This document shows positions 1,076-12,441 of a DNA stretch of 32,000 nucleotides, piece after piece. Source of the stretch: Bacterioplanes sanyensis. GTDB lineage: Bacteria; Pseudomonadota; Gammaproteobacteria; Pseudomonadales; Oceanobacteraceae. The DNA lies in contig NZ_CP022530.1 of NCBI RefSeq assembly GCF_002237535.1, positions 1,887,248 to 1,919,247 of the forward strand. The letters run 5' to 3'. A model generated the notes under the pieces. That model did not search any database, was not told where the DNA came from, and saw only the letters and a program-made list of their open reading frames with translations. Within the stretch, counting starts at the first letter, position 1. Each line of letters starts with the position of its first letter. A program made the translations under genes and the position numbers.

Positions 1076-4000
1076 ATGAGACTGCAATCCGTATCGCTTG
1101 ATGATAAGTACACCCGCAATGACGGTCCGGTTTACATGACGGGCATCCAGGCATTGGTGCGTTTGCCCATGTTGCAGGCTGCGCGTGACAAAGCCGCTGG
1201 CTTAAACACGGCGGGCTACATATCCGGTTATCGTGGCTCGCCCCTGGGCGGGCTGGACGGCGCGCTGTGGAGCGCGCAAAAATTCCTCAAAAACCACAAT
1301 GTACGCTTTCAGCCCGCCATCAATGAAGACATGGGGGCGACGGCGGTGTGGGGCAGCCAACAGGCCAACATGTACGACGACGCCAAGTACGACGGCGTCT
1401 ATGCCATGTGGTACGGCAAAGGTCCGGGTGTTGATCGCTCGATGGACGTGTTCAAGCACGCCAACGCGGCCGGTACCTCGAAGCACGGTGGTGTGCTGCT
1501 GGTGGCCGGCGACGACCATGCGTCCAAGTCATCGACGTTGCCGCACCAAAGCGAGCACATGATGATTGGCGCCAGCATTCCGGTACTTAACCCCGCCGGT
1601 GTGCAAGAAGTGTTGGACTACGGTATTTATGGCTGGGAGCTGTCGCGCTACAGCGGCTGCTGGGTGTGTCTGAAGGCCATTACCGAAGTGATGGATAGCT
1701 CGCAGGTGGTGGATGTCGAGCAGAGCCGCATTCAGATCAATATGCCGAGCGATTTTGAACTGCCCGCCGACGGTGTGCACATCCGCTGGCCCGATTCGCC
1801 ACAAGCCCAGGAAGAGCGCTTAAACCGCTACAAAATCTACAGCGCCATTGCCTTTGCCAGAGCCAATGGTCTGAACAAAATCGTCGTTGATAGCAAAGAG
1901 CCGAAGCTCGGTATCATCACCACGGGCAAATCTTACCTGGATGTTCGCCAAGCGTTGGCGGACTTAGGCATCGACGATCAACTGGCCTGTGACATTGGCA
2001 TTCGGGTATTTAAAGTGGGCATGAGCTGGCCGCTGGACCCGGTGCTGACGCACGAATTCGCCAAAGGCTTGGAAGAAGTGTTGGTGGTGGAGGAAAAACG
2101 CTCCATCTTGGAAGACCAGCTGACCGGGCAATTGTACAACTGGCCAGTGGAAGAGCGGCCACGCGTGGTGGGTGAGTTTGACGAGCAACGCAATGTATTG
2201 CTGCCCAACACCACCGAATTGACGCCAGCGATGATCGCACGCGTCATTGCCGATCGCATTAAACAGTTCTACACCAGCGATGTGGTGCAAGAGCGGTTGG
2301 AGTTCTTAAACAAAAAAGAAGAGGCGCTGGCCAAACCTCGCACTGGCATTGACCGGGTGCCACATTATTGTTCCGGCTGTCCGCACAACAGCTCCACCAA
2401 GGTACCAGAAGGCAGTCGCGCGTTAGGCGGCATTGGTTGCCACTACATGGTGAACTGGATGGATCGCTCGACCTCGACCTTCACCCAAATGGGCGGCGAA
2501 GGGGTGACCTGGGTCGGCCAGGCGCCTTTTGTCGGTGATAAGCATGTATTCCAGAACCTAGGTGACGGTACGTATTTCCATTCCGGTAGTTTGGCCATTC
2601 GTCAGGCCATTGCTTCCGGTGCCAATATTACCTACAAAATTTTGTACAACGACGCCGTCGCCATGACCGGTGGCCAGCCGTTGGATGGCACCATGAGTGT
2701 GATGCAATTAACTCATCAACTCTACGGTGAAGGCGTTAAGCATATTTATTTGGTCAGTGACGATTTGTCCAAATACACCAATAAATACGAATTTGCCGAT
2801 GGCACCAAATTCTTTGACCGCAAAGAAATGGAATTTGTGCAAAAAACCATGCGCGAGTTGCCCGGTGTCTCTGTACTGATTTATGAGCAAACCTGTGCGG
2901 CGGAAAAGCGTCGCCGGCGTAAGCGCGGCAAGATGCCAGATCCGCAAAAGCGCGTGATTATTAATCAAGACGTGTGCGAAGGCTGCGGTGATTGCAGTGT
3001 GCAATCCAATTGTTTATCAGTGGTGCCAAAAGAAACCGAGCTGGGTCGCAAGCGCAGTATCGACCAGGATGCCTGCAACAAAGATTTCAGCTGTTTGGAT
3101 GGCTTTTGCCCGAGCTTCGTGACGGTCGAAGGCGGCAGTCTGAAAAAACACATTCCCGATGCCAATGTGGTGAATCAGGCGCCGTCGCTGTTAAACCTGC
3201 CTGAACCAGCACTGGCCGACGCCAGCAACACTTGGAATTTGGTACTGACGGGCGTGGGTGGCACTGGTGTGGTGACCACGGCGGCAGTCATGGGCATGGC
3301 GGCTCATATCCAAGGGTTAGGAGTATCGGTATTGGATATGACCGGCCTGGCGCAAAAATTCGGTGCGGTGGTCAGCCATGTGCGCTTTGCCAATAAACCT
3401 GCCGACATTAACGCGGTACGTATTCCAGCGGGCGAGGCTAACTTGCTGCTGGGTTGCGACTTGGTGGTGAGCGCCAGCGACGATACCTTGGCCAAGGTCA
3501 ACGATAAACTCACCTACGGCATTATTAACGATCACGAAGCCATTACCGCCGAGTTTACTCGCAACGCCGATGCACAGTTCCCGGCCAAGTCGATGAAAGA
3601 CACCATCGCCGATGCAGTGGGTGCAGATAAAACTCGCTTTGTTAATGCCACTCGCTTGGCCAAAGCCTTGCTGGGGGATGCCATGGCCACCAACATGTTT
3701 ATGATTGGTTATGCCATGCAAAAAGGTTTAATGCCGATTTCACCAGCGGCGCTGGACCAAGCGATCGAGCTGAATGGCGCAGCGGTCGAAGCCAACAAGC
3801 AAGCCGTATTGTGGGGCCGTCGTGCCGCTCATGATCAGCTGGCGGTAGAAACCATTGTCAATCAGCTGCCGGGCACCCCTAAGCCATTCCAGCCTCTGGA
3901 AGACCTGGGCGAGATTATTGCCGATCGCGTTCGACGTCTGACCGACTATCAGGACGCCGCGTATGCGCAGCAATACCAACAATTGGTGCAGGAAGTGCAG

Positions 4001-4573: not shown

Positions 4574-5644
4574 ATGTCCGTTTTTTCACACAAAGATTTT
4601 GATCATCACGAAGACGTGCACTTTCACCATGACCCGGCAACGGGTCTAAAAGCCATCGTTGCGGTGCACAATACCAGCCGGGGCCCAGCCTTGGGTGGCT
4701 GTCGCATGTTTGCTTACCAGTCTGACGAAGAAGCATTGAGCGATGTGCTGCGCCTGTCTCGTGGTATGAGTTATAAATCGGCCATGGCCAATCTGCCGTT
4801 GGGTGGAGGGAAGTCCGTTATCATCGGTGACCCGTCGGCGATGAAAACCCCCGCGCTGTTGCAAGCCATGGGTAAGTTTGTGCATTCACTGGGCGGTCAA
4901 TACATTGCGGCTGAAGACTCAGGCACCAGTGTGCCCGATATTGAGCAAATGGGTTCCATGACACCGCATGTTGCGGGTATTCAAAGCAAGCTCGATGTTG
5001 ATGGCAACCCCGTGTCCGGCGATCCATCGCCGTCCACTGCCTACGGGGTATTTGTCGGTATCAAAGCCGCCGTGCAGCATAAATTGCAGCGCGATCTAAA
5101 TGGCGTGAAGGTGGCGATTCAAGGCTTGGGTAATGTCGGTATGTATTTGGCGCAGTATTTGGCCGACGCTGGCGCTAAGCTGACCGTGTGTGACATTAAC
5201 GAAGAAAAACTCAACATGGCGAAGCTGCGTTGGAACGCCAATATCGTCAGCGTAGAAGATATCTTTGCTGCCGACGTCGACGTATTTGCACCCTGCGCCA
5301 TGGGCGGTGCCATTAACGATCAAACGTTACCGCAGATTAAAGCCACTGTGATTGCCGGTGCTGCCAACAACCAGCTGGCTGAAAAGCACCACGACCAAGC
5401 GGTGCTGGAGCGCGGTATTCTGTATGCACCCGATTACGTAATTAATGCCGGTGGCATTATCGATGTGTCGTACGAAGGGCCAGAATACTCGGCTAAAAAA
5501 GCGCGTACCCATATTGATGGCATTGGCGATACTTTGGCAGAGATCTTTGAGCGTTCCGACGCCACTGGCCAACCAACCGAACTGCTCGCTAACAAAATTG
5601 CGGAAGAGCGCTTACAACTTCGAACCCCAGAGCATAGCCTCTGA
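4574..5644 (+). CDS. Leu/Phe/Val (branched-chain amino acid) dehydrogenase, Glu/Leu/Phe/Val dehydrogenase family
   Basis: 356 aa. It matches Bacillus leucine dehydrogenase as I remember it: [30 protein letters not shown]...[20 protein letters not shown] Rossmann motif, [26 protein letters not shown]. The ATG lies 3 nt after the IOR stop, with AGAGG as SD, so it is co-transcribed. Substrate specificity was not determined. Confidence 0.9.
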
Positions 5645-5653
5645 TCTCCCCTT

Positions 5654-5682
5654 GGCAGCCACGTTTGTGGCTGCCCTTTTTC
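5654..5682 (+). terminator. Rho-independent terminator after the dehydrogenase gene
   Basis: Perfect 9-bp GC-rich stem GGCAGCCAC (5654-5662) / GTGGCTGCC (5667-5675) with loop GTTT, followed by CTTTTTC. It starts 10 nt after the stop codon. Confidence 0.8.
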
Positions 5683-5782
5683 TATTTGGCCAAAGGCCGA
5701 AATTACTTTTTTACTTGTGAGTTGCCAGGCGCATGCTCAGAGCCTGTCGACATTAAATACATTGAGCCAGCTTTGACAACGA

Positions 5783-6178
5783 CTATTCTGGAAACCTTGC
5801 GTAGGACTTTAGTCCCTCCAGCCCGGACTCCCAGTCGGCTTGACTTGCGGTGAATATGTGCGCGTCCGGCGTCCTAGATATTTGGCTGTCGAGACTGCCT
5901 GCGGGGACGGAGCAAAACCCATTGGTCGTATTTGGTACTGCAGAGCCACACTGGCAGCAAAAACTCTTGCTGTGCCGTGTCGGCGTGAGCTTGAACGTTT
6001 TTACTTTATCTTCACCTGTTAGCCACACCAGCGCTTCTTTGCCGGTAAATAAGTTGGCTGCGTAGGCAGAGCCGGTATCCTTTTGGCAATGAGCACAGTG
6101 GCAGAGATAGAAATTTTTAAACTCTGCACGGATCTCGAAGGTGACATCGCCGCATAAGCAGGAGCCTTTTATCGTCAT
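5783..6178 (-). CDS. GFA-family (glutathione-dependent formaldehyde-activating / CENP-V-like) zinc protein
   Basis: MTIKGSCLCGDVTFE...CHCAHCQKDTGSAY...CCQCGS is the GFA Cys pattern. I prefer ATG 6178, which has purine-rich AAGAGAAAAG upstream and gives the family-typical M..KGSC.CG N-terminus. The track ORF extends to ATG 6205. Confidence 0.82.
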   Translation of the reverse strand: MTIKGSCLCGDVTFEIRAEFKNFYLCHCAHCQKDTGSAYAANLFTGKEALVWLTGEDKVKTFKLTPTRHSKSFCCQCGSAVPNTTNGFCSVPAGSLDSQISRTPDAHIFTASQADWESGLEGLKSYARFPE

Positions 6179-6216
6179 GGTGCTTTTCTCTTTGTGGATG
6201 GCCATTGGCGATAGCG

Positions 6217-6400
6217 CTCGGGCCTGTTAACACGAATTCGATCACGCTGTTCAGACATACCCCGAAGGGCTGGCGTCCGTTTTTTCTTGAGTCGCGTTAT
6301 TCGTTGCTTCTTTAACTGGTTAAACCACACGCCTCATGCCTTACTCAAGAAAAAACTGACGTCCAGTAGTAAAGAGCGAAATCGTGTTAACAGACCCTAG
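6217..6400 (-). mobile_element. MITE-like palindromic repeat element, copy 1 (184 bp)
   Basis: It is the reverse complement of 10872-11139. By hand alignment there are about 20 mismatches and two 1-nt gaps over 184 nt. Termini CTCGGGCCTGTTAACAC (6217-6233) and GTGTTAACAGACCCTAG (6384-6400) form a 17-bp TIR. An internal 18-bp inverted repeat pairs 6275-6292 with 6343-6360 (17/18). No ORF is present. Confidence 0.75.
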
Positions 6401-6436
6401 AAACGCTGCGGTTTTGTGGGCGCAGACGGTAAGCGT

Positions 6437-6781
6437 TTATTCCTCAGCCAAGGTCTGCTTAAACGACCGCACATATTCATTCACCGCACCGCGCTCACAA
6501 CTGCCATGAAACTCTACCCAATGCAGGGTATTGCCGATCAATACAATGCTGCCTGACACCACAAATGTCACGACTGGAAGACCCAGTGCCACGATGAGCG
6601 CGCATTGTTCGGCATTGTTTGCGTCTTTACATTCATGCCCTTCCAGAGGCACCGTTTCTAACGTCAGCTGCTTGGTGTACATGTCGCAGTGGCGGGCATA
6701 CCTTTGGTGTTTTTCAACCGCAGGGGAGAAGGCACAGGAGGCCAATAAAGCGCTAATAATGACACTGCATACCTTATGCAT
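6437..6781 (-). CDS. Hypothetical lipoprotein with one additional hydrophobic segment
   Basis: 114-aa ORF. It has a signal peptide with lipobox LLAS-C (MHKVCSVIISALLASC), a later hydrophobic stretch ALIVALGLPVVTFVVSGSIVLIG, and several Cys. It lies 62 nt downstream of the CoA-transferase gene on the same strand. I recognise no family. Confidence 0.55.
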   Translation of the reverse strand: MHKVCSVIISALLASCAFSPAVEKHQRYARHCDMYTKQLTLETVPLEGHECKDANNAEQCALIVALGLPVVTFVVSGSIVLIGNTLHWVEFHGSCERGAVNEYVRSFKQTLAEE

Positions 6782-6843
6782 TTTGCTCCGTCCTTAAAAA
6801 CTGACTCTCTAATATTGCTGGCTATGCAGGCCAGTAGCGATTG

Positions 6844-8196
6844 TTATCGCCACTGTGCGTTTGATGAACCCAAAGTTACCGCGCCAGTTGGCCAGTGGGG
6901 TTGTATTACAGAACCTGAAAACGGCACTTTAACCCGCTTTGCTTGCCCCCAGCTGGTGTGTTCAAGGGTGGTGCTGAAATCACTGTCTTGTCGACTTTCC
7001 ATGGCGATGGAGGCGTCAGACAGTGGGTTTGATATTAATAACTCTGCTACCGCTGCGAGTGATGTTTTTACCTGGCTCACCAGCCCGGCATCGCGCTTGA
7101 GCTCCAGTGCCTGAATCACCGCCGTTGCCATTAAATACCCTGTGGCGTGGTCCAGTGCCTGAACCGGTAATGGTTTCGGTCTGTCACTGCCTGACTGCGT
7201 CATGCCGTAGTCGGCAATGCCGCTGCTCATTTGTACCAGGCTGTCAAAGCCACGGCGGGTACTCCACTCGTTATTCCAGCCGTAGGCGTTGAGAGACACA
7301 TTGATTAACAGCGGATTAAGTGCCGACAAGCTGGCAGATGCGTAACCTAAATGCTCCAACGCATCGCTGCGATAGCCATGCACTAAAACGTCGGCTTGAG
7401 CGATCAGCTGCTCAAAGATGGCCCTGTCTGTCGAATTGTGCAGGTCGAGTCGCGCGCAACGTTTTCCCAGTGTCACCTCTTGCTCGATGCTGGGCTCGTG
7501 CCAATCTTTGGGATCAATTCTTAACACGTCGGCGCCAAATGCAGCTAAAAAGCGCGTTGCCACCGGACCTGCCAGAATACGGGTCAGATCCAATACTTTG
7601 ATACCGGCTAACGGGCTTGTCGGGTTGGGCTGGCTTGGTTGTGCTTGGTCGGTCTCAGAAAGTTGCCAATGCAGCTGAGGCTCATATTGCAATTGACTGC
7701 CCACTGGGTGCGAGCGCCATTGCTCAATAGAATGCATCGCAGCAGCACAGCCACCTTGTTCCACAACGGCCGTTTCGATGTCTTTAGCATTGTGCGCGCC
7801 AACCATCGCTTGTACAGAGTCTTTGTCGTCGGCGCAGCCTAATACGTTTAATGCCACCGCTTTGTGGTGGGGAGCATTGGTGTGCAAGCGGATCCAGCCG
7901 TCTTTGGCGAGGTAGTCTCCAGCGATGTTGTCCCAGGCACTGGCAATCTGCCAGCCTTGCGGCTGTACGGTAAAATCGAACCATAAATTAGCCAGCCGGA
8001 CATCCAGTTGGCCTACTTGATCGACTTTGGCATAGCGATGCAGCGCTCCCCACGCCAGTGACATGGTACTGCAGATTAAATCCGTCACGGCAAACCAACT
8101 GGGCAGGGTCTGTATATTGCTTAGCGTTGGCAGCGGTATGGGTGCCAAACCAGCAATGTTCAGTTGTTCGCACAGTTTGTTATGTAGATCCGTCAT
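6844..8196 (-). CDS. Family III CoA-transferase (CaiB/BaiF-like), about 450 aa with atypical domain order
   Basis: Signature LAGIKVLDLTRILAGPVATRFLAAFGADVLRIDP and the catalytic-Asp region VQALDHATGY are present. I moved the start from 8340 to ATG 8196 (MTDLHNK...), which has AGGA 8 nt upstream. The 48 upstream codons are not protein-like. Confidence 0.82.
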   Translation of the reverse strand: MTDLHNKLCEQLNIAGLAPIPLPTLSNIQTLPSWFAVTDLICSTMSLAWGALHRYAKVDQVGQLDVRLANLWFDFTVQPQGWQIASAWDNIAGDYLAKDGWIRLHTNAPHHKAVALNVLGCADDKDSVQAMVGAHNAKDIETAVVEQGGCAAAMHSIEQWRSHPVGSQLQYEPQLHWQLSETDQAQPSQPNPTSPLAGIKVLDLTRILAGPVATRFLAAFGADVLRIDPKDWHEPSIEQEVTLGKRCARLDLHNSTDRAIFEQLIAQADVLVHGYRSDALEHLGYASASLSALNPLLINVSLNAYGWNNEWSTRRGFDSLVQMSSGIADYGMTQSGSDRPKPLPVQALDHATGYLMATAVIQALELKRDAGLVSQVKTSLAAVAELLISNPLSDASIAMESRQDSDFSTTLEHTSWGQAKRVKVPFSGSVIQPHWPTGAVTLGSSNAQWR

Positions 8197-9099
8197 GCAG
8201 TCAATCCTATAGGCCGTTAGGGCGTTGATACGGATGATAACAGTACGGCATGTTATTGTGCATCTTGTCGGTTGCTGAATGCCGCTGCTTAGAGAAAAGC
8301 TAAAATAATGGTTGTAACGAAAATGGTTTTCAGGTTTCAAAGCATGATCACTTCCTCAGTGCCTGCGCTCGAAGAGAAAAGCTTTGAGTTTGATGTATGG
8401 CGCCAGGCTATGCGCCCGAAACTCCAGAAATAGTGCGGCTTAGATGAGCTGTGTCAGTGGCTGGTGATAAACGACTTTTGATGCACGACTTTGCGTAGGA
8501 AATCCTTGGTTGATATTTGGTTAAGCGACAAATCAACGGCCATCTATTGATTTATCAATAGCTCGATTGCCTGCGGTTTACAGAGTTCTATCTGTTAAAC
8601 AATGATGATCGCCAGTGGGGTGCTAGACCGTTACAGTGTCAGGCTAGATCCCCTGGAGTCAGCAGCAAGTGGCTAGCCGAGCTCTAGATTGAATACGCTC
8701 GGCTGATTTCGCCATTTTGCTGGCATATATCAAATACAACCGACAGGTTCGTGTACAGGTAACATGGTTCTCACGCACGCAAACTGTATGTGAACACCTA
8801 GGGCACGACGATGTTGGTGATTATTTAACATTTTCGAAATGCGTTGCGTAACCGAGTTGAGCTTCGAATCTACTATGTCGATCTAGAAAATCCTGGTATC
8901 AATCTAGCCTAGACTGGCACGAGCATATTGACGGAAAAGTGTATTCGTCGCTGGCGTACTGAGCAGAAGAAACGCGTTTTGGATTTGAAATAGACTTTTA
9001 CCAGAGTGGTATGACTAAATTTTTTTGGTGCTTGATGGGTTTATCACGAGCTACTTCAGGTCGTGCTTGGTACGCCTCGAGTGAGTTGGTGGAGCGTTG

Positions 9100-10158
9100 T
9101 TAGAATGAAAAACGATACCCAAGGTAGGTATTGTGTGTATCGCCAGCGTCTTTGTTGTATTCAGAATACCCCAAGTAAACAAGCACCTTTTTATTCAGAT
9201 GGTACACGCCTTCAAATACCCAGCGGGATTTTCTAAGATCCACCCCCACTTCCGGCGAGTCTTCTCGTATGCCATAGCCAAAGGTGTAGCTAATGCGATT
9301 TACTCTGTACTTCATGTAAAGGTCTGCGATTTTAAAGTCCGCTTGCTCTACTCTGTAGCCGACCACGCAGGGGTTGAGATCGGCTCGCACATTGGAATCC
9401 GCAATAAACGAACTTTCTGTACCCACCTCCAGTTGCAAGCCAATGTGCAGAGGGGGAGTTTTGTAGGCCACACCCAACGACGTTTCCGCCGTTTTCGCTC
9501 CACAGTTTTCATACTTCGTTGCCATATGACCCGCAGCAAGTGACACGTTGGCGAATGTGACTTCGCCCATCGCGACATGTGCATCGAAATCTTGCTGATC
9601 TCGGCTTGGGTTATCCACATCCGTTCCATCAACGATGACGGCTGCTAGAAATGACAAATGGCCATGGTTAAAACCGTAAGACAGCGCATCGCCGATTCGC
9701 TTTGCATGAATCTGTGCCCATCCAGAGTTGCGATAAAACCTGTCCGCTTTGTAGGTTCGATGGATGGGATTTAGCTGACGTCCGATGATCAGCGTGCCGA
9801 AGGTATCACGAATGCCAGCATGGGCTTGTCGGACAACCAAGCTGGCGGAATCCTTACTGGATGTGCCGCTGGGCTCAAGTGGAGTGGCATCGTCATAAGT
9901 CGTTTCATCGTCGTTTCGATATTGCGCTTCTAGCCGGTAGAAGGCCGTTTGCTCCGGTGTGATGGCCATCTTGCCCTTGATGCCGAGATTATGACCTTCA
10001 TTATTGATGTTCATATCCCGGTATTTTTCCGCAATCAATGCAAGATGAATGCGGCCGTAGAAATGAGGCCTGCCGTCCAGCTGATTGTTAACAGAATGTG
10101 TCTGCGCAGTAAGTGATATCAGTACAAAAAAACAACACACTCTGTCGATATGATTCAT
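9100..10158 (-). CDS. Outer-membrane porin (Gram-negative general porin family)
   Basis: 352 aa with signal peptide MNHIDRVCCFFVLISLTAQTHS and alternating beta-strand pattern throughout. C-terminus YLGYRFSF ends in the terminal Phe typical of OMPs. FYGRIHLAL near the N-terminus is typical of porin_4-type proteins. Confidence 0.78.
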   Translation of the reverse strand: MNHIDRVCCFFVLISLTAQTHSVNNQLDGRPHFYGRIHLALIAEKYRDMNINNEGHNLGIKGKMAITPEQTAFYRLEAQYRNDDETTYDDATPLEPSGTSSKDSASLVVRQAHAGIRDTFGTLIIGRQLNPIHRTYKADRFYRNSGWAQIHAKRIGDALSYGFNHGHLSFLAAVIVDGTDVDNPSRDQQDFDAHVAMGEVTFANVSLAAGHMATKYENCGAKTAETSLGVAYKTPPLHIGLQLEVGTESSFIADSNVRADLNPCVVGYRVEQADFKIADLYMKYRVNRISYTFGYGIREDSPEVGVDLRKSRWVFEGVYHLNKKVLVYLGYSEYNKDAGDTHNTYLGYRFSF

Positions 10159-10394
10159 AGCAAAGTCAGCCGCTGCACTAGTGCTAGTATCAGGCTAGCT
10201 GTTCGACTGAAATAAGCAAACCCGTCATTTTGAGTCTTTATTGCAATTGCCAGTCAGTTGCAGTTGATTGTTTTAATTGTTTTTCTATGAGCCGAAAGAG
10301 GAAGAGTTGATACAATCAATTGATGAGCCAGTCGAAGCAGCTGAGGTTGATGTTTTGAATCAGTCCGTATCTGGCTTTCGAATAAATCGCTGAT

Positions 10395-10868
10395 TTATTC
10401 ATTTAAAAAATCCAGTAGTTCATCAAACGTCGCTGGCCCAAAACAAGGTATGCCATGCTGGCTTAATAATTCGGCTGTCAGCCCCTGACCTGGAATCAGA
10501 CGACCAGAAAACTCGCCGTCATAGATTTCACGGCTGCCGCAAGACGGTGAGCGGTCGGCCAATAATGCCGCAGCCACGTTGTGTTGTTGCGCCAGTGTCA
10601 GTGCCTTTTGCGCGCCGGATTCAAACGCAGCGGTAAAGTCCTGGCCGTCGCTGGCAATGACGTGGCCCAGACGAATTTCTGCCGCAGGCCTAGGCGTGGG
10701 AAGGCCGCCGGCCACTTCTGGGCAGATCACTACTACTCTGCGCTCGCTTTGCCAGCGTTGAATCACCGTTTGCAAGTGCGCGACTTTATCGTCATTAGCA
10801 CGGCCATCGTAACGAACCGGTTGTCCCATTAAGCACGCGCTGATGAGGATTTTTTTAGCTGAAGTCAT
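10395..10868 (-). CDS. DUF523 family protein (TudS-like 2-thiouracil desulfurase fold)
   Basis: ILISACLMGQPVRYDG...ICPEVAGGLPTPRPAAEI...ADRSPSCG gives the three-Cys DUF523 signature. The ATG at 10868 sits only 3 nt from the end of repeat copy 2. Confidence 0.85.
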   Translation of the reverse strand: MTSAKKILISACLMGQPVRYDGRANDDKVAHLQTVIQRWQSERRVVVICPEVAGGLPTPRPAAEIRLGHVIASDGQDFTAAFESGAQKALTLAQQHNVAAALLADRSPSCGSREIYDGEFSGRLIPGQGLTAELLSQHGIPCFGPATFDELLDFLNE

Positions 10869-10871
10869 GGT

Positions 10872-11139
10872 TTAGGGCCTATTAACACTATTTAGTTCTT
10901 TGCTGCTGGAAGTCAGTTTTTCTTGAGTAAGGCATGAGGCGTGTGGTTTTACCGGTTAAATAAGCAACGAATAACGCAACTCAGGGAAAATGGACGCCAG
11001 CCCTTCGGGGTATGGCTGAAAACCCCTCAATCTGTGTTGCTCATCTTTCATTTTACTCGTTAAATATCCCTCTTCGCGCCTTGGTTGAGTGGTTTTCAGC
11101 TCATAACAGCGTGATCGAAATAGTGTTAACAGGCCCTAG
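10872..11139 (+). mobile_element. MITE-like palindromic repeat element, copy 2 (268 bp, carries a nested insertion of about 86 bp)
   Basis: Termini are TTAGGGCCTATTAACAC (10872-10888) and GTGTTAACAGGCCCTAG (11123-11139). It is collinear with the reverse complement of copy 1, apart from extra sequence at about 11020-11105. That extra sequence is bounded by its own inverted repeat GCTGAAAACC (11015-11024) / GGTTTTCAGC (11091-11100). The 69-aa ORF at 11012-11221 here looks spurious. Confidence 0.75.
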
Positions 11140-11927
11140 CTCTTTTGACACAAGAGATGCACATAGCGACCCAAGCGTCGATACGGCTCTTTTAATCCGT
11201 ATTCTAAATCGGTTTGGTTGACTTGGTCCTGGCCGATACGTTGGCGAATTTTCTGGTGCATATGATCGTGAATGCAGCGAATACCGCGCCAGCGTTTGAT
11301 GGTCATGCCCAAGTCTTGCAGCGCTTGGCAAATCGCGTCTGGGTCCAGTGGATGCTGCGGCGCATTGCCCTGTTGGCGCAGACGTTCGCTGGCCGCCGTA
11401 GGCGCGTGTGTGCGGCCGTTCATAATCTGCCGCCATTGATGGCCGTGTAAGTTGTAAAACATCAACGATAACCAGCCGCCGGGCGCAACTTTTGATACCA
11501 ATATCGGCAAGGCGTCAAACGGCTGCTCCAGCCATTCTAACACCGCGTGATTTAATACCAGCGGATACTGCTGCGGGAAAAAATCATCAACCTGCTGTAA
11601 GCTGCCAAGCTGTGTCGTCAGTGGCAGGCCTGCGGCAATAAATTGATCACGTGCCAGGGCCAGCATTTCTTCAGACAGGTCCAACAGCGATACTTCCGCG
11701 CCATGCTGCGCCAGTTGCAAACTGAACTGACCTTGTCCACCACCGATGTCCAATATGGTTTGCCCGCTTGGTACAGCGCAATCAGCAAAGTCCTGGCTGA
11801 GCGCCAATAGCCTTAGTTGCCCGCGCGGTGTGGCGTAAATAGTGCGGCTAAAGCGCTGTGCTAAATCGTCGAAGTTGCGATCTGGCTGGGTATTGTTTGG
11901 GTCCGCCGTTGGCGGGCGAGTCGTCAT
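11136..11927 (-). CDS. cmoM: tRNA 5-carboxymethoxyuridine methyltransferase (SmtA/CmoM), class I SAM-dependent methyltransferase
   Basis: 263 aa. RNFDDLAQRFSRTIYATPRGQLR...ILDIGGGQGQFSLQLAQHGAEVSLLDLSEEML parallels E. coli SmtA/CmoM as I remember it (DRNFDDIAEKFSRNIYGTTKGQLR...VLDAGGGEGQ...CDLS..M), and the length is similar. The TAG stop (11136-11138) lies inside the terminal CTAG of repeat copy 2. Confidence 0.8.
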   Translation of the reverse strand: MTTRPPTADPNNTQPDRNFDDLAQRFSRTIYATPRGQLRLLALSQDFADCAVPSGQTILDIGGGQGQFSLQLAQHGAEVSLLDLSEEMLALARDQFIAAGLPLTTQLGSLQQVDDFFPQQYPLVLNHAVLEWLEQPFDALPILVSKVAPGGWLSLMFYNLHGHQWRQIMNGRTHAPTAASERLRQQGNAPQHPLDPDAICQALQDLGMTIKRWRGIRCIHDHMHQKIRQRIGQDQVNQTDLEYGLKEPYRRLGRYVHLLCQKS

Positions 11928-12441
11928 AACGGTGGAATCATCCGAGGTATTCGCATGTGGTTGGGTATTTGCTCTGTTACTGCTTCAATAACGGCCTTAG
12001 CGAAGGCCCAGGCCCAGCAAGGGTGTTGCTAACGCTGGTTTCACGCTGCAGCTGTAGGTGCTGATTTTACCTGCGAACGCTGGCGACTGTTAAGACTATC
12101 TGACTGGTCGCGTATCTAACCCTAAAAGCTAACGCCAAACATGCTCACACCCTGCACCACCAAACCTCTCGACCAGCCCCGGGTTTTGTACTCAATTGTT
12201 TCAAAGCTCCCCTATGGGTTGGCCGTAGAATTGTAGGCTGGTTAAACCCATCGCAATGGCTATTGAGCAGTGCTTTTGGTTCAGAGGACTGCAGCCGTTT
12301 ATCTAACATCAGGGCGGTGCAGTTTATGGCCTACTGCGTGATAGGCGGCTGCGTTGCTGATAGCCGATGCAGTAAAGTGCATCGTTCTTGCAGCTGAGCG
12401 TCTATACTCTGCTAGCCCTGTAGTTTGGATTGGAATCATGT

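Follow-up and report, generated by a model that had tools for sequence, protein, structure and literature searches.

The two repeats at positions 6218–6399 and 10873–11138 of the 32,000-nucleotide stretch of Bacterioplanes sanyensis DNA analysed here (the window; positions 1887248–1919247 of contig C1 of the 4.29-Mb single-contig genome G000) are very probably copies of a non-autonomous type II MITE, the termini of which come from an 812-bp insertion sequence (IS) of the IS5 family (IS427-group-like) and which duplicates TA at YTAR targets. A preliminary description, made from the letters alone, had already read the repeats as MITE-like, and this is upheld by their small size, non-coding nature, terminal inverted repeats (TIRs), TA duplication, dispersed copies, variable presence and termini common to an autonomous IS.

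A repeat search of the window aligned 6187–6399 with the reverse complement of 10873–11169 in four collinear blocks (77–94% complementary) and found TIRs of 27 nt at 85% in the first copy (copy 1) and of 26 nt at 88% in the second (copy 2). BLAST gave 88% identity over 150 nt and 91% over 35 nt, in agreement with the repeat search that 6217–6400 and 10872–11139 are inverted copies of one repeat, and consistent with the roughly 20 mismatches counted by hand in the preliminary description. The 17-bp sequence given there as the TIR (CTAGGGCCTGTTAACAC) does mark a TIR but not its extent, as it starts with a flanking C and the duplicated TA, and its remaining 14 nt are the beginning of the TIR, which is 18–22 nt long and perfect in many copies; the element proper reads GGGCCTGTTAACAC(TAWTT)…GGCCC. 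Copy 2, on the minus strand, is a canonical full-length MITE of 266 bp including both TAs (10873–10874 and 11137–11138), with the element proper at 10875–11136. Copy 1, on the plus strand, is a short form of 182 bp including the flanking dinucleotides; its element proper occupies 6220–6397, and the repeat and TIR searches place the left TIR (GGGCCTGTTAACACGAATT) at 6220–6238 and the right TIR (AAATCGTGTTAACAGACCC) at 6379–6397. The right TA lies at 6398–6399 and the left TA has mutated to TC (6218–6219).

The difference in length had been taken for an insertion in copy 2. The conserved form is 268 bp, however, and since this is the form conserved across genera, copy 1 is a deletion derivative that has lost 84 bp. 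In the profile search its whole extent (6218–6399) matched model positions 3–33 and 118–267, and the deletion junction at 6251–6252 joins …CGCTGTT to CAGACATA… with the loss of consensus positions of about 34–117, the left hairpin. The corresponding left-hairpin module is present at 11021–11104 (minus strand) in copy 2, as in all full-length copies. The two internal structures noted earlier in copy 1 are both present on the plus strand, namely the central mini-hairpin CCCCGAAGGG at 6260–6269 and the 18-bp internal inverted repeat, the arms of which (6275–6292 and 6343–6360; 17/18 complementary, 50-nt loop) form the right hairpin (6275–6360). The list of open reading frames holds no credible ORF in either copy, the only one overlapping copy 1 being spurious (51 aa), which bears out the lack of coding capacity.

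The repeats are members of a family and not two isolated copies: BLAST of the unit together with a profile built from full-length copies located about 42 loci in G000, far above chance expectation. The full-length copies, about 268 bp long, number 22; besides them there are three short forms with both TIRs, about 14 remnants with one end only and two mini forms (about 60 bp). Over the whole family, including other genomes, element sizes span 60–396 bp. The short form at 1800776–1800949 has the same deletion junction as copy 1, and that at 2726026–2726209 a different one. The mini elements (G000 464938–464999 and 2683992–2684053; G018:C21, approximately 34926–34985) consist of the two TIRs and arise via deletion between short direct repeats in the MITE, GAGCTGAA/GAGCTAAA in G000 and CAGGCC in G018. 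Pairwise identity of the G000 copies is 71–93% (median 82%), while the copies in Thalassolituus are younger (median about 93%, maximum 98.5%), several of them being orthologous between species. A TIR search found no cognate IS, that is, one with these termini, in G000. Because the cognate IS is missing and the copies are only about 82% identical, the family is most plausibly dormant here and in decay. The two ends of the G000 contig (G000:C1:1–13273 and 4280456–4293726; 13.27 kb) are 99.985% identical, most likely as an untrimmed overlap of a circular chromosome, the true size of which would be about 4.28 Mb.

In the alignment of the 22 full-length copies with their flanks the repeat has the form x-TA-GGGCCTGTTAACACTATTT…AAATAGTGTTAACAGGCCC-TA-y, and similarity stops abruptly beyond. 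In a target logo from 65 ends in several species, Y precedes the left TA in 95% and R follows the right TA in 98%; these outer bases vary independently of each other, and the positions beyond them are random. Since TA is self-complementary, duplicated bases and element bases are otherwise ambiguous, and empty sites were required. In G001, a genome of the same genus, the cmoM-like and DUF523-like genes are adjacent and the empty site at their junction reads CATGGT·TA·TCTGC, compared with CATGGTT·TA[MITE]TA·GCTC in the window. A copy in Thalassolituus pacificus (TTTGGT·TA[…]TA·ATTGTG) corresponds to the empty sites TTTGGT·TA·ATCGT in G018 and G024, with a flank identity of 95–96%, and a second T. 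pacificus copy to the empty site GGACAT·TA·ACAAAG. As the unoccupied sites in G001, G018 and G024 hold exactly one TA, the duplication is TA exactly, within a YTAR target. Some copies end in CA…TG, which alone could place the dinucleotide inside the element; the empty sites argue otherwise, and these occasional flanks are later substitutions. A 3-bp CTA duplication, a 4-bp CTAG duplication and a TA belonging to the TIR are all excluded by the independently varying outer bases and the empty sites. Of the earlier suggestion of a TA- or CTAG-type target, TA (within YTAR) stands; the accompanying view that no clean duplication could be defined does not, as the empty sites define one of 2 bp.

The full-length IS with the same TIR, a search for which the preliminary description had proposed, was found in other genomes and is absent from the host. 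In six genomes no TIR pairs occur at the spacing of an IS, the only spacings being about 41, 160 (short forms), 250, 318 and 380 bp. A single 1.85-kb TIR pair, in G018, was rejected as an IS, its two members being a mini element and a lone TIR with ordinary host genes in between. G000 itself carries about 40 copies of a resident IS of 857 bp, IS857, encoding a DUF4096 OrfA and a DDE OrfB, frameshifted (e.g. 502364–503220; nearest to the window, 1872944–1873800), and their identity of 99–100% indicates a recent burst. The ends of IS857 (TA·GAAGCTGTTTCACAAC, with TA duplication), and one copy (3630100–3630956) for which precisely the TA beside a MITE served as target and was duplicated, made the IS5 family the next lead after the IS630 parent guessed first.

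A DUF4096 screen combined with a terminus check of all 86 genomes of the bacterial family gave two positives. G073 contains an 817-bp IS bounded by TAGAGAATGTTCTCAATTA / TAGGGAGCGTTCTCAATTA, which is the terminus (TAGAGGGCGTTCTCAATTA) of a second type of MITE (type 2), and also holds about 20 type-2 MITE copies. G100, from the genus Thalassolituus, has a perfect terminus of the first type (type 1), 38 nt, and then a truncated DUF4096 ORF, the relic of an IS; in this locus (L173, G100:C18, approximately 1290–1480, minus strand) three tandem units of about 65 bp (…AATGAGACAGTCATGATAAGAAGATAGAAC…) interrupt the relic type-1 transposase ORF. When the 47-aa G100 peptide was searched against 301 genomes of the order, intact homologues with 77–83% identity turned up in three other bacterial families, in the four genomes G255 (10 matches to the OrfA N-terminus, several of them verified as complete 812-bp copies), G319, G358 and G203. 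Each intact partner is 812 bp long and has the form TA·GGGCCTGTTAACACTAAT…ATTAGTGTTAACAGGCCC·TA with flanks Y-TA/TA-G, and its OrfA and OrfB are separated by an A8 run. The transposase matches DUF4096 (PF13340), PF01609, PF13586 and NCBIfam NF033580 (235 bits). NF033580 (IS5 family) is likewise matched by the type-2 and IS857 transposases, to which the type-1 transposase is 34% and 27% identical, respectively.

The published description of the IS427 group (PMC3281130) gives a length of 832–865 bp, 13–21-bp IRs, a 2-bp DR and a pair of overlapping ORFs joined by a frameshift motif. Judged by length, arrangement of the ORFs, 2-bp duplication and the family-level HMM, the partner ISs appear IS427-group-like; the 812-, 817- and 857-bp ISs fit the traits published for the group (e.g. 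IS1248, ISPpa2 and ISPaes1), whereas the MITE itself is no IS and carries the termini only. Among plasmids, the nearest annotated relatives (Burkholderia, Cupriavidus and Pseudomonas) show only 65–69% DNA identity, and a search of the plasmid database with the MITE as query gave no match. The similarity between MITE and IS is confined to the 18–23 terminal nt, which makes the MITE type II in the sense of PMC4596501. Intact IS and the same MITE core co-occur in G358, G319 and G255, where the TIR variant follows the resident IS, with GTTCAC in both elements of G358 and GTTAAC in both elements of G255 and G319. From these sequences we infer that the MITE was mobilised by the transposase of the 812-bp IS. 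The MITE is present and the cognate IS lacking in G000, G018, G022, G024 and G004, and a genome search of G018, G022 and G024 found no IS5-type transposase of any kind. As most MITE hosts are without the cognate IS, mobilisation in them must have been past or episodic.

A scan for the conserved central motif, with one genome per species, returned 70 loci, in T. pacificus, T. alkanivorans, T. marinus, T. maritimus, Thalassolituus sp. UBA1087, Gynuella, Bacterioplanoides, Oceanobacter mangrovi and MAGs of the Saccharospirillaceae/Oceanospirillaceae. The family, one of marine Gammaproteobacteria of Saccharospirillaceae/Oceanospirillaceae type, is patchy among relatives (9/41 genomes positive); G001, of the same genus as the host, has no copy, and G022, of another genus, has copies at 87–88% identity. 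The preliminary description had held that two copies without further relatives, at orthologous positions conserved in related genomes, would point to a conserved regulatory structure; with about 42 copies and presence that varies among relatives, the situation is clearly a different one. The two TIR arms vary in a matched manner (GTTAAC, GTCGAC, GTTGAC/GTCAAC and GTCTAC/GTAGAC), and in Oceanobacter and genus g4 the same core is enclosed by the very different type-2 terminus, TA·GAGGGCGTTCTCAATTA. Larger variants of about 334 and 396 bp have added hairpin modules in their loops. They come from T. alkanivorans, T. pacificus and a Saccharospirillaceae MAG (e.g. L073, L059, L079 and L121), and the extra GC-rich modules, such as GGGATGTTCAGCACATCCC and GTCAGGAACATGGATGTTCCTGAC, lie in the loop of the left or the right hairpin, so that the family grows by module addition.

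In the minimum-free-energy structure predicted for copy 1, both the CCCCGAAGGG hairpin and the 18-bp inverted repeat are formed. This copy folds at −68 kcal/mol (z = −6.0) on the plus strand and at −74 kcal/mol (z = −5.8) on the minus strand, and the consensus at −99.7 kcal/mol (z = −7.8). RNAalifold on 16 sequences, one representative per lineage, predicted a structure closed by the TIRs, inside which two long hairpins, left and right, flank a very small, invariant one at the centre. The CCC/GGG stem of the central hairpin is invariant across lineages and its loop varies (GAA, TTC, AAC, ATC or GGA), while compensatory changes are found in the left hairpin (helix 2: 20 pairs, 11 compensatory) and the right hairpin (helix 6). 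Compensatory double changes affect 34 of the 57 predicted pairs, compared with 7–10 in slid-partner controls; paired cells amount to 94.8%, compared with 35–47% in the same controls, and none of 500 shuffles reached the observed values. The reverse-complement alignment folds as well as the forward one (−44.9 kcal/mol, forward −40.1; mean MFE −115, forward −111), and the fold is strand-neutral. An apparent strand-specific RNA signal, an excess of G·T over A·C, was an artefact of helices defined with G·T allowed and disappeared under a symmetric definition. The compensatory changes are suggestive of selection on the fold, although sequence relatedness and palindrome-templated repair could inflate the covariation.

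The core of about 225 bp is unrelated to the IS and conserved in at least 10 genera, and the same core lies between the termini of the second IS427-group-like IS type, the transposase of which is only 34% identical. The notable feature of the family is this conserved, structured core, which is foreign to the IS and is enclosed by the termini of two IS427-group elements only distantly related to each other. Through compensatory change, the core has retained its length and pairings in at least four bacterial families. It is conceivable, though doubtful, that the double hairpin is a long-lived module selected for its fold, and not filler, in a MITE lineage that persists beyond any one transposase partner and changes from one to another.

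All 42 of the G000 copies are intergenic, and those between co-directional genes lie in the same orientation as the genes in eight cases and in the opposite one in nine. In five of the 27 two-ended copies the TAG stop codon of a neighbouring gene is made up of TA and G of the repeat. One of these is the methyltransferase (cmoM-like) ORF at 11136–11927 (minus strand), the stop codon of which (11136–11138) consists of the duplicated TA and the terminal base of copy 2. A preference for stop codons was rejected, 5/27 being equivalent to the 15.8% expected at available YTAR sites (p = 0.43). On the other side of copy 2, the start codon (10866–10868, minus strand) of the DUF523-like ORF at 10395–10868 is 4 nt from the flanking TA of the MITE. 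In G001 no MITE intervenes and 2 nt separate the cmoM-like gene from the DUF523-like gene, so that copy 2 is probably co-transcribed with its neighbours. No promoter-like or terminator-like sites were found inside either copy.

Comparison of 6437–10868 of the window with G001:C5:225532–226922 showed a distance of about 3.8 kb between a lipoprotein gene and the DUF523 gene in the window, as against about 0.8 kb for the lipoprotein-gene orthologue in G001. The CoA-transferase gene, a 0.9-kb ORF-free stretch and the porin gene constitute an indel of about 3 kb, the ends of which do not fall at the two MITE copies, and both genomes have the cmoM, DUF523 and lipoprotein genes in the same order and on the same strands; inversion or mobilisation of the segment by the MITE pair is thus not indicated. 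Beside copy 1, the Cys-rich ORF at 5783–6205 (minus strand) probably starts at its second ATG (MTIKGSCLCG…, position of about 6178), which has an AAGAG-type ribosome-binding site. This start would place copy 1 about 40 nt upstream of the ORF and not 12 nt.

The alternatives to an IS5-derived MITE concern either the transposase or the nature of the repeat. An IS630 parent was guessed first because of the TA/CTAG target: a MITE derived from IS630/Tc1-mariner elements (cf. RUP and IS630-Spn1) and moved by a DDE_3 transposase at the TA within CTAG would leave a TA duplication in a CTAG-like target, the classical IS630 signature. DDE_3 (PF13358) transposases are, however, missing from the host and from five MITE-rich relatives, and occur in only 7/86 genomes of the bacterial family, in none of which a MITE terminus lies at the locus. 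Since these searches gave no element with MITE termini, and the IS5-family IS has the identical terminus, TA duplication and target, an IS630 origin is most improbable. In favour of IS857 as the current mobiliser in G000 are its membership of the same NF033580 clade, its TA duplication, the terminal motif CTGTT in common with the MITE and the one copy that occupies the flanking TA of a MITE. Against this, its termini differ from those of the MITE at about half of the first 16 positions and its transposase is only 27% identical to that of the true partner. In addition, no pair of MITE copies exceeds 93% identity compared with the near-identity of the IS857 copies, a gap which implies that the recent IS857 burst did not mobilise the MITE, and such a role for IS857 is very unlikely. 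The palindromic, intergenic and multi-copy character of the repeat recalls REP/BIME-like or IS200/IS605-type elements moved by a Y1/RAYT transposase. Such systems do not make long TIRs with a 2-bp target duplication, and with an IS5-type partner identified the chance that one of them is responsible is close to nil.

A different kind of explanation is that the repeats are primarily structured non-coding RNA genes or cis-regulatory RNA (terminators, stabilisers or processing sites). The very stable fold (z of −6 to −8), the compensatory pairs that no shuffle matched and the position of copy 2 inside a probable operon would all suit such a function. The empty sites, on the other hand, demonstrate insertion with TA duplication, and neither an Rfam match nor a promoter-like or terminator-like site was found. 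The near-equal numbers of the two orientations, the balance of G·T and A·C mismatches and the equal folding of both strands also count against it, leaving a primary role as RNA highly improbable.

The preferred reading is that of a MITE mobilised by the IS5-family element, in which the DDE transposase encoded by the 812-bp IS would bind and cleave at the TIRs (GGGCCTGTTAACACTAWTT, 18–23 bp). This enzyme would be produced by fusion of the DUF4096 OrfA and the DDE OrfB via −1 frameshifting on the A8 run. Acting in trans, it would excise the MITE and insert it at a YTAR site with duplication of the central TA. The IS is no longer present in the genome of the window, and the approximately 42 MITE copies there would be fossils, decayed via hairpin-associated and direct-repeat deletions of which copy 1 is one product. 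The interior of about 225 bp does not derive from the IS and is a strand-neutral double-hairpin module maintained by compensatory substitutions.

Rfam 15 gave no match at E ≤ 1 for either strand of window positions 5500–12000, and neither the TIR sequence nor Thalassolituus MITEs were found in the full-text papers searched, consistent with the earlier statement that the family was previously unannotated. The kind of element is well known; neither the family nor its partner IS seems to have been described. Type II MITEs of the IS5 family include BrickBuilt, MITE293 and MITE700 in Porphyromonas gingivalis and ATR in Neisseria (PMC4596501). The present family resembles these in being non-coding and multi-copy, with TIRs identical or nearly identical to those of an IS5-family IS, unrelated interiors and many degenerate copies. 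It differs from them in its unrelated sequence and host range, in the clean TA duplication at YTAR, in having a conserved double hairpin and not tandem repeats, and in lacking its partner in most hosts.

The comparison with Correia, ERIC and RUP elements drawn in the preliminary description holds as an analogy only. Those elements are also small, TIR-bounded intergenic repeats that form long hairpins on transcription and may sit in operons, and Correia and RUP are flanked by TA. The MITE is longer (268 bp), and the hosts differ, those of Correia, ERIC and RUP being Neisseria, Enterobacteria and Streptococcus pneumoniae. The partners differ as well, being of IS630 type as proposed for RUP, none accepted for Correia and of the IS5 family here.

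For annotators of Thalassolituus, Oceanobacter, Gynuella, Bacterioplanoides and marine relatives, these results provide a consensus, boundaries, the TA/YTAR target and a partner IS for a family that otherwise fragments assemblies and confuses intergenic annotation. Two odd junctions in the window are explained, namely a stop codon supplied by the element and a 268-bp hairpin separating genes whose counterparts in a sister species have 2 nt between them. If the core is under selection, its fold might aid transposition by bringing the ends together or binding a host factor, or might serve the host independently of strand. As a clean type II MITE whose partner most hosts lack, and whose interior is common to two distant IS partners, the family offers a tractable system for testing whether MITE interiors matter in transposition.
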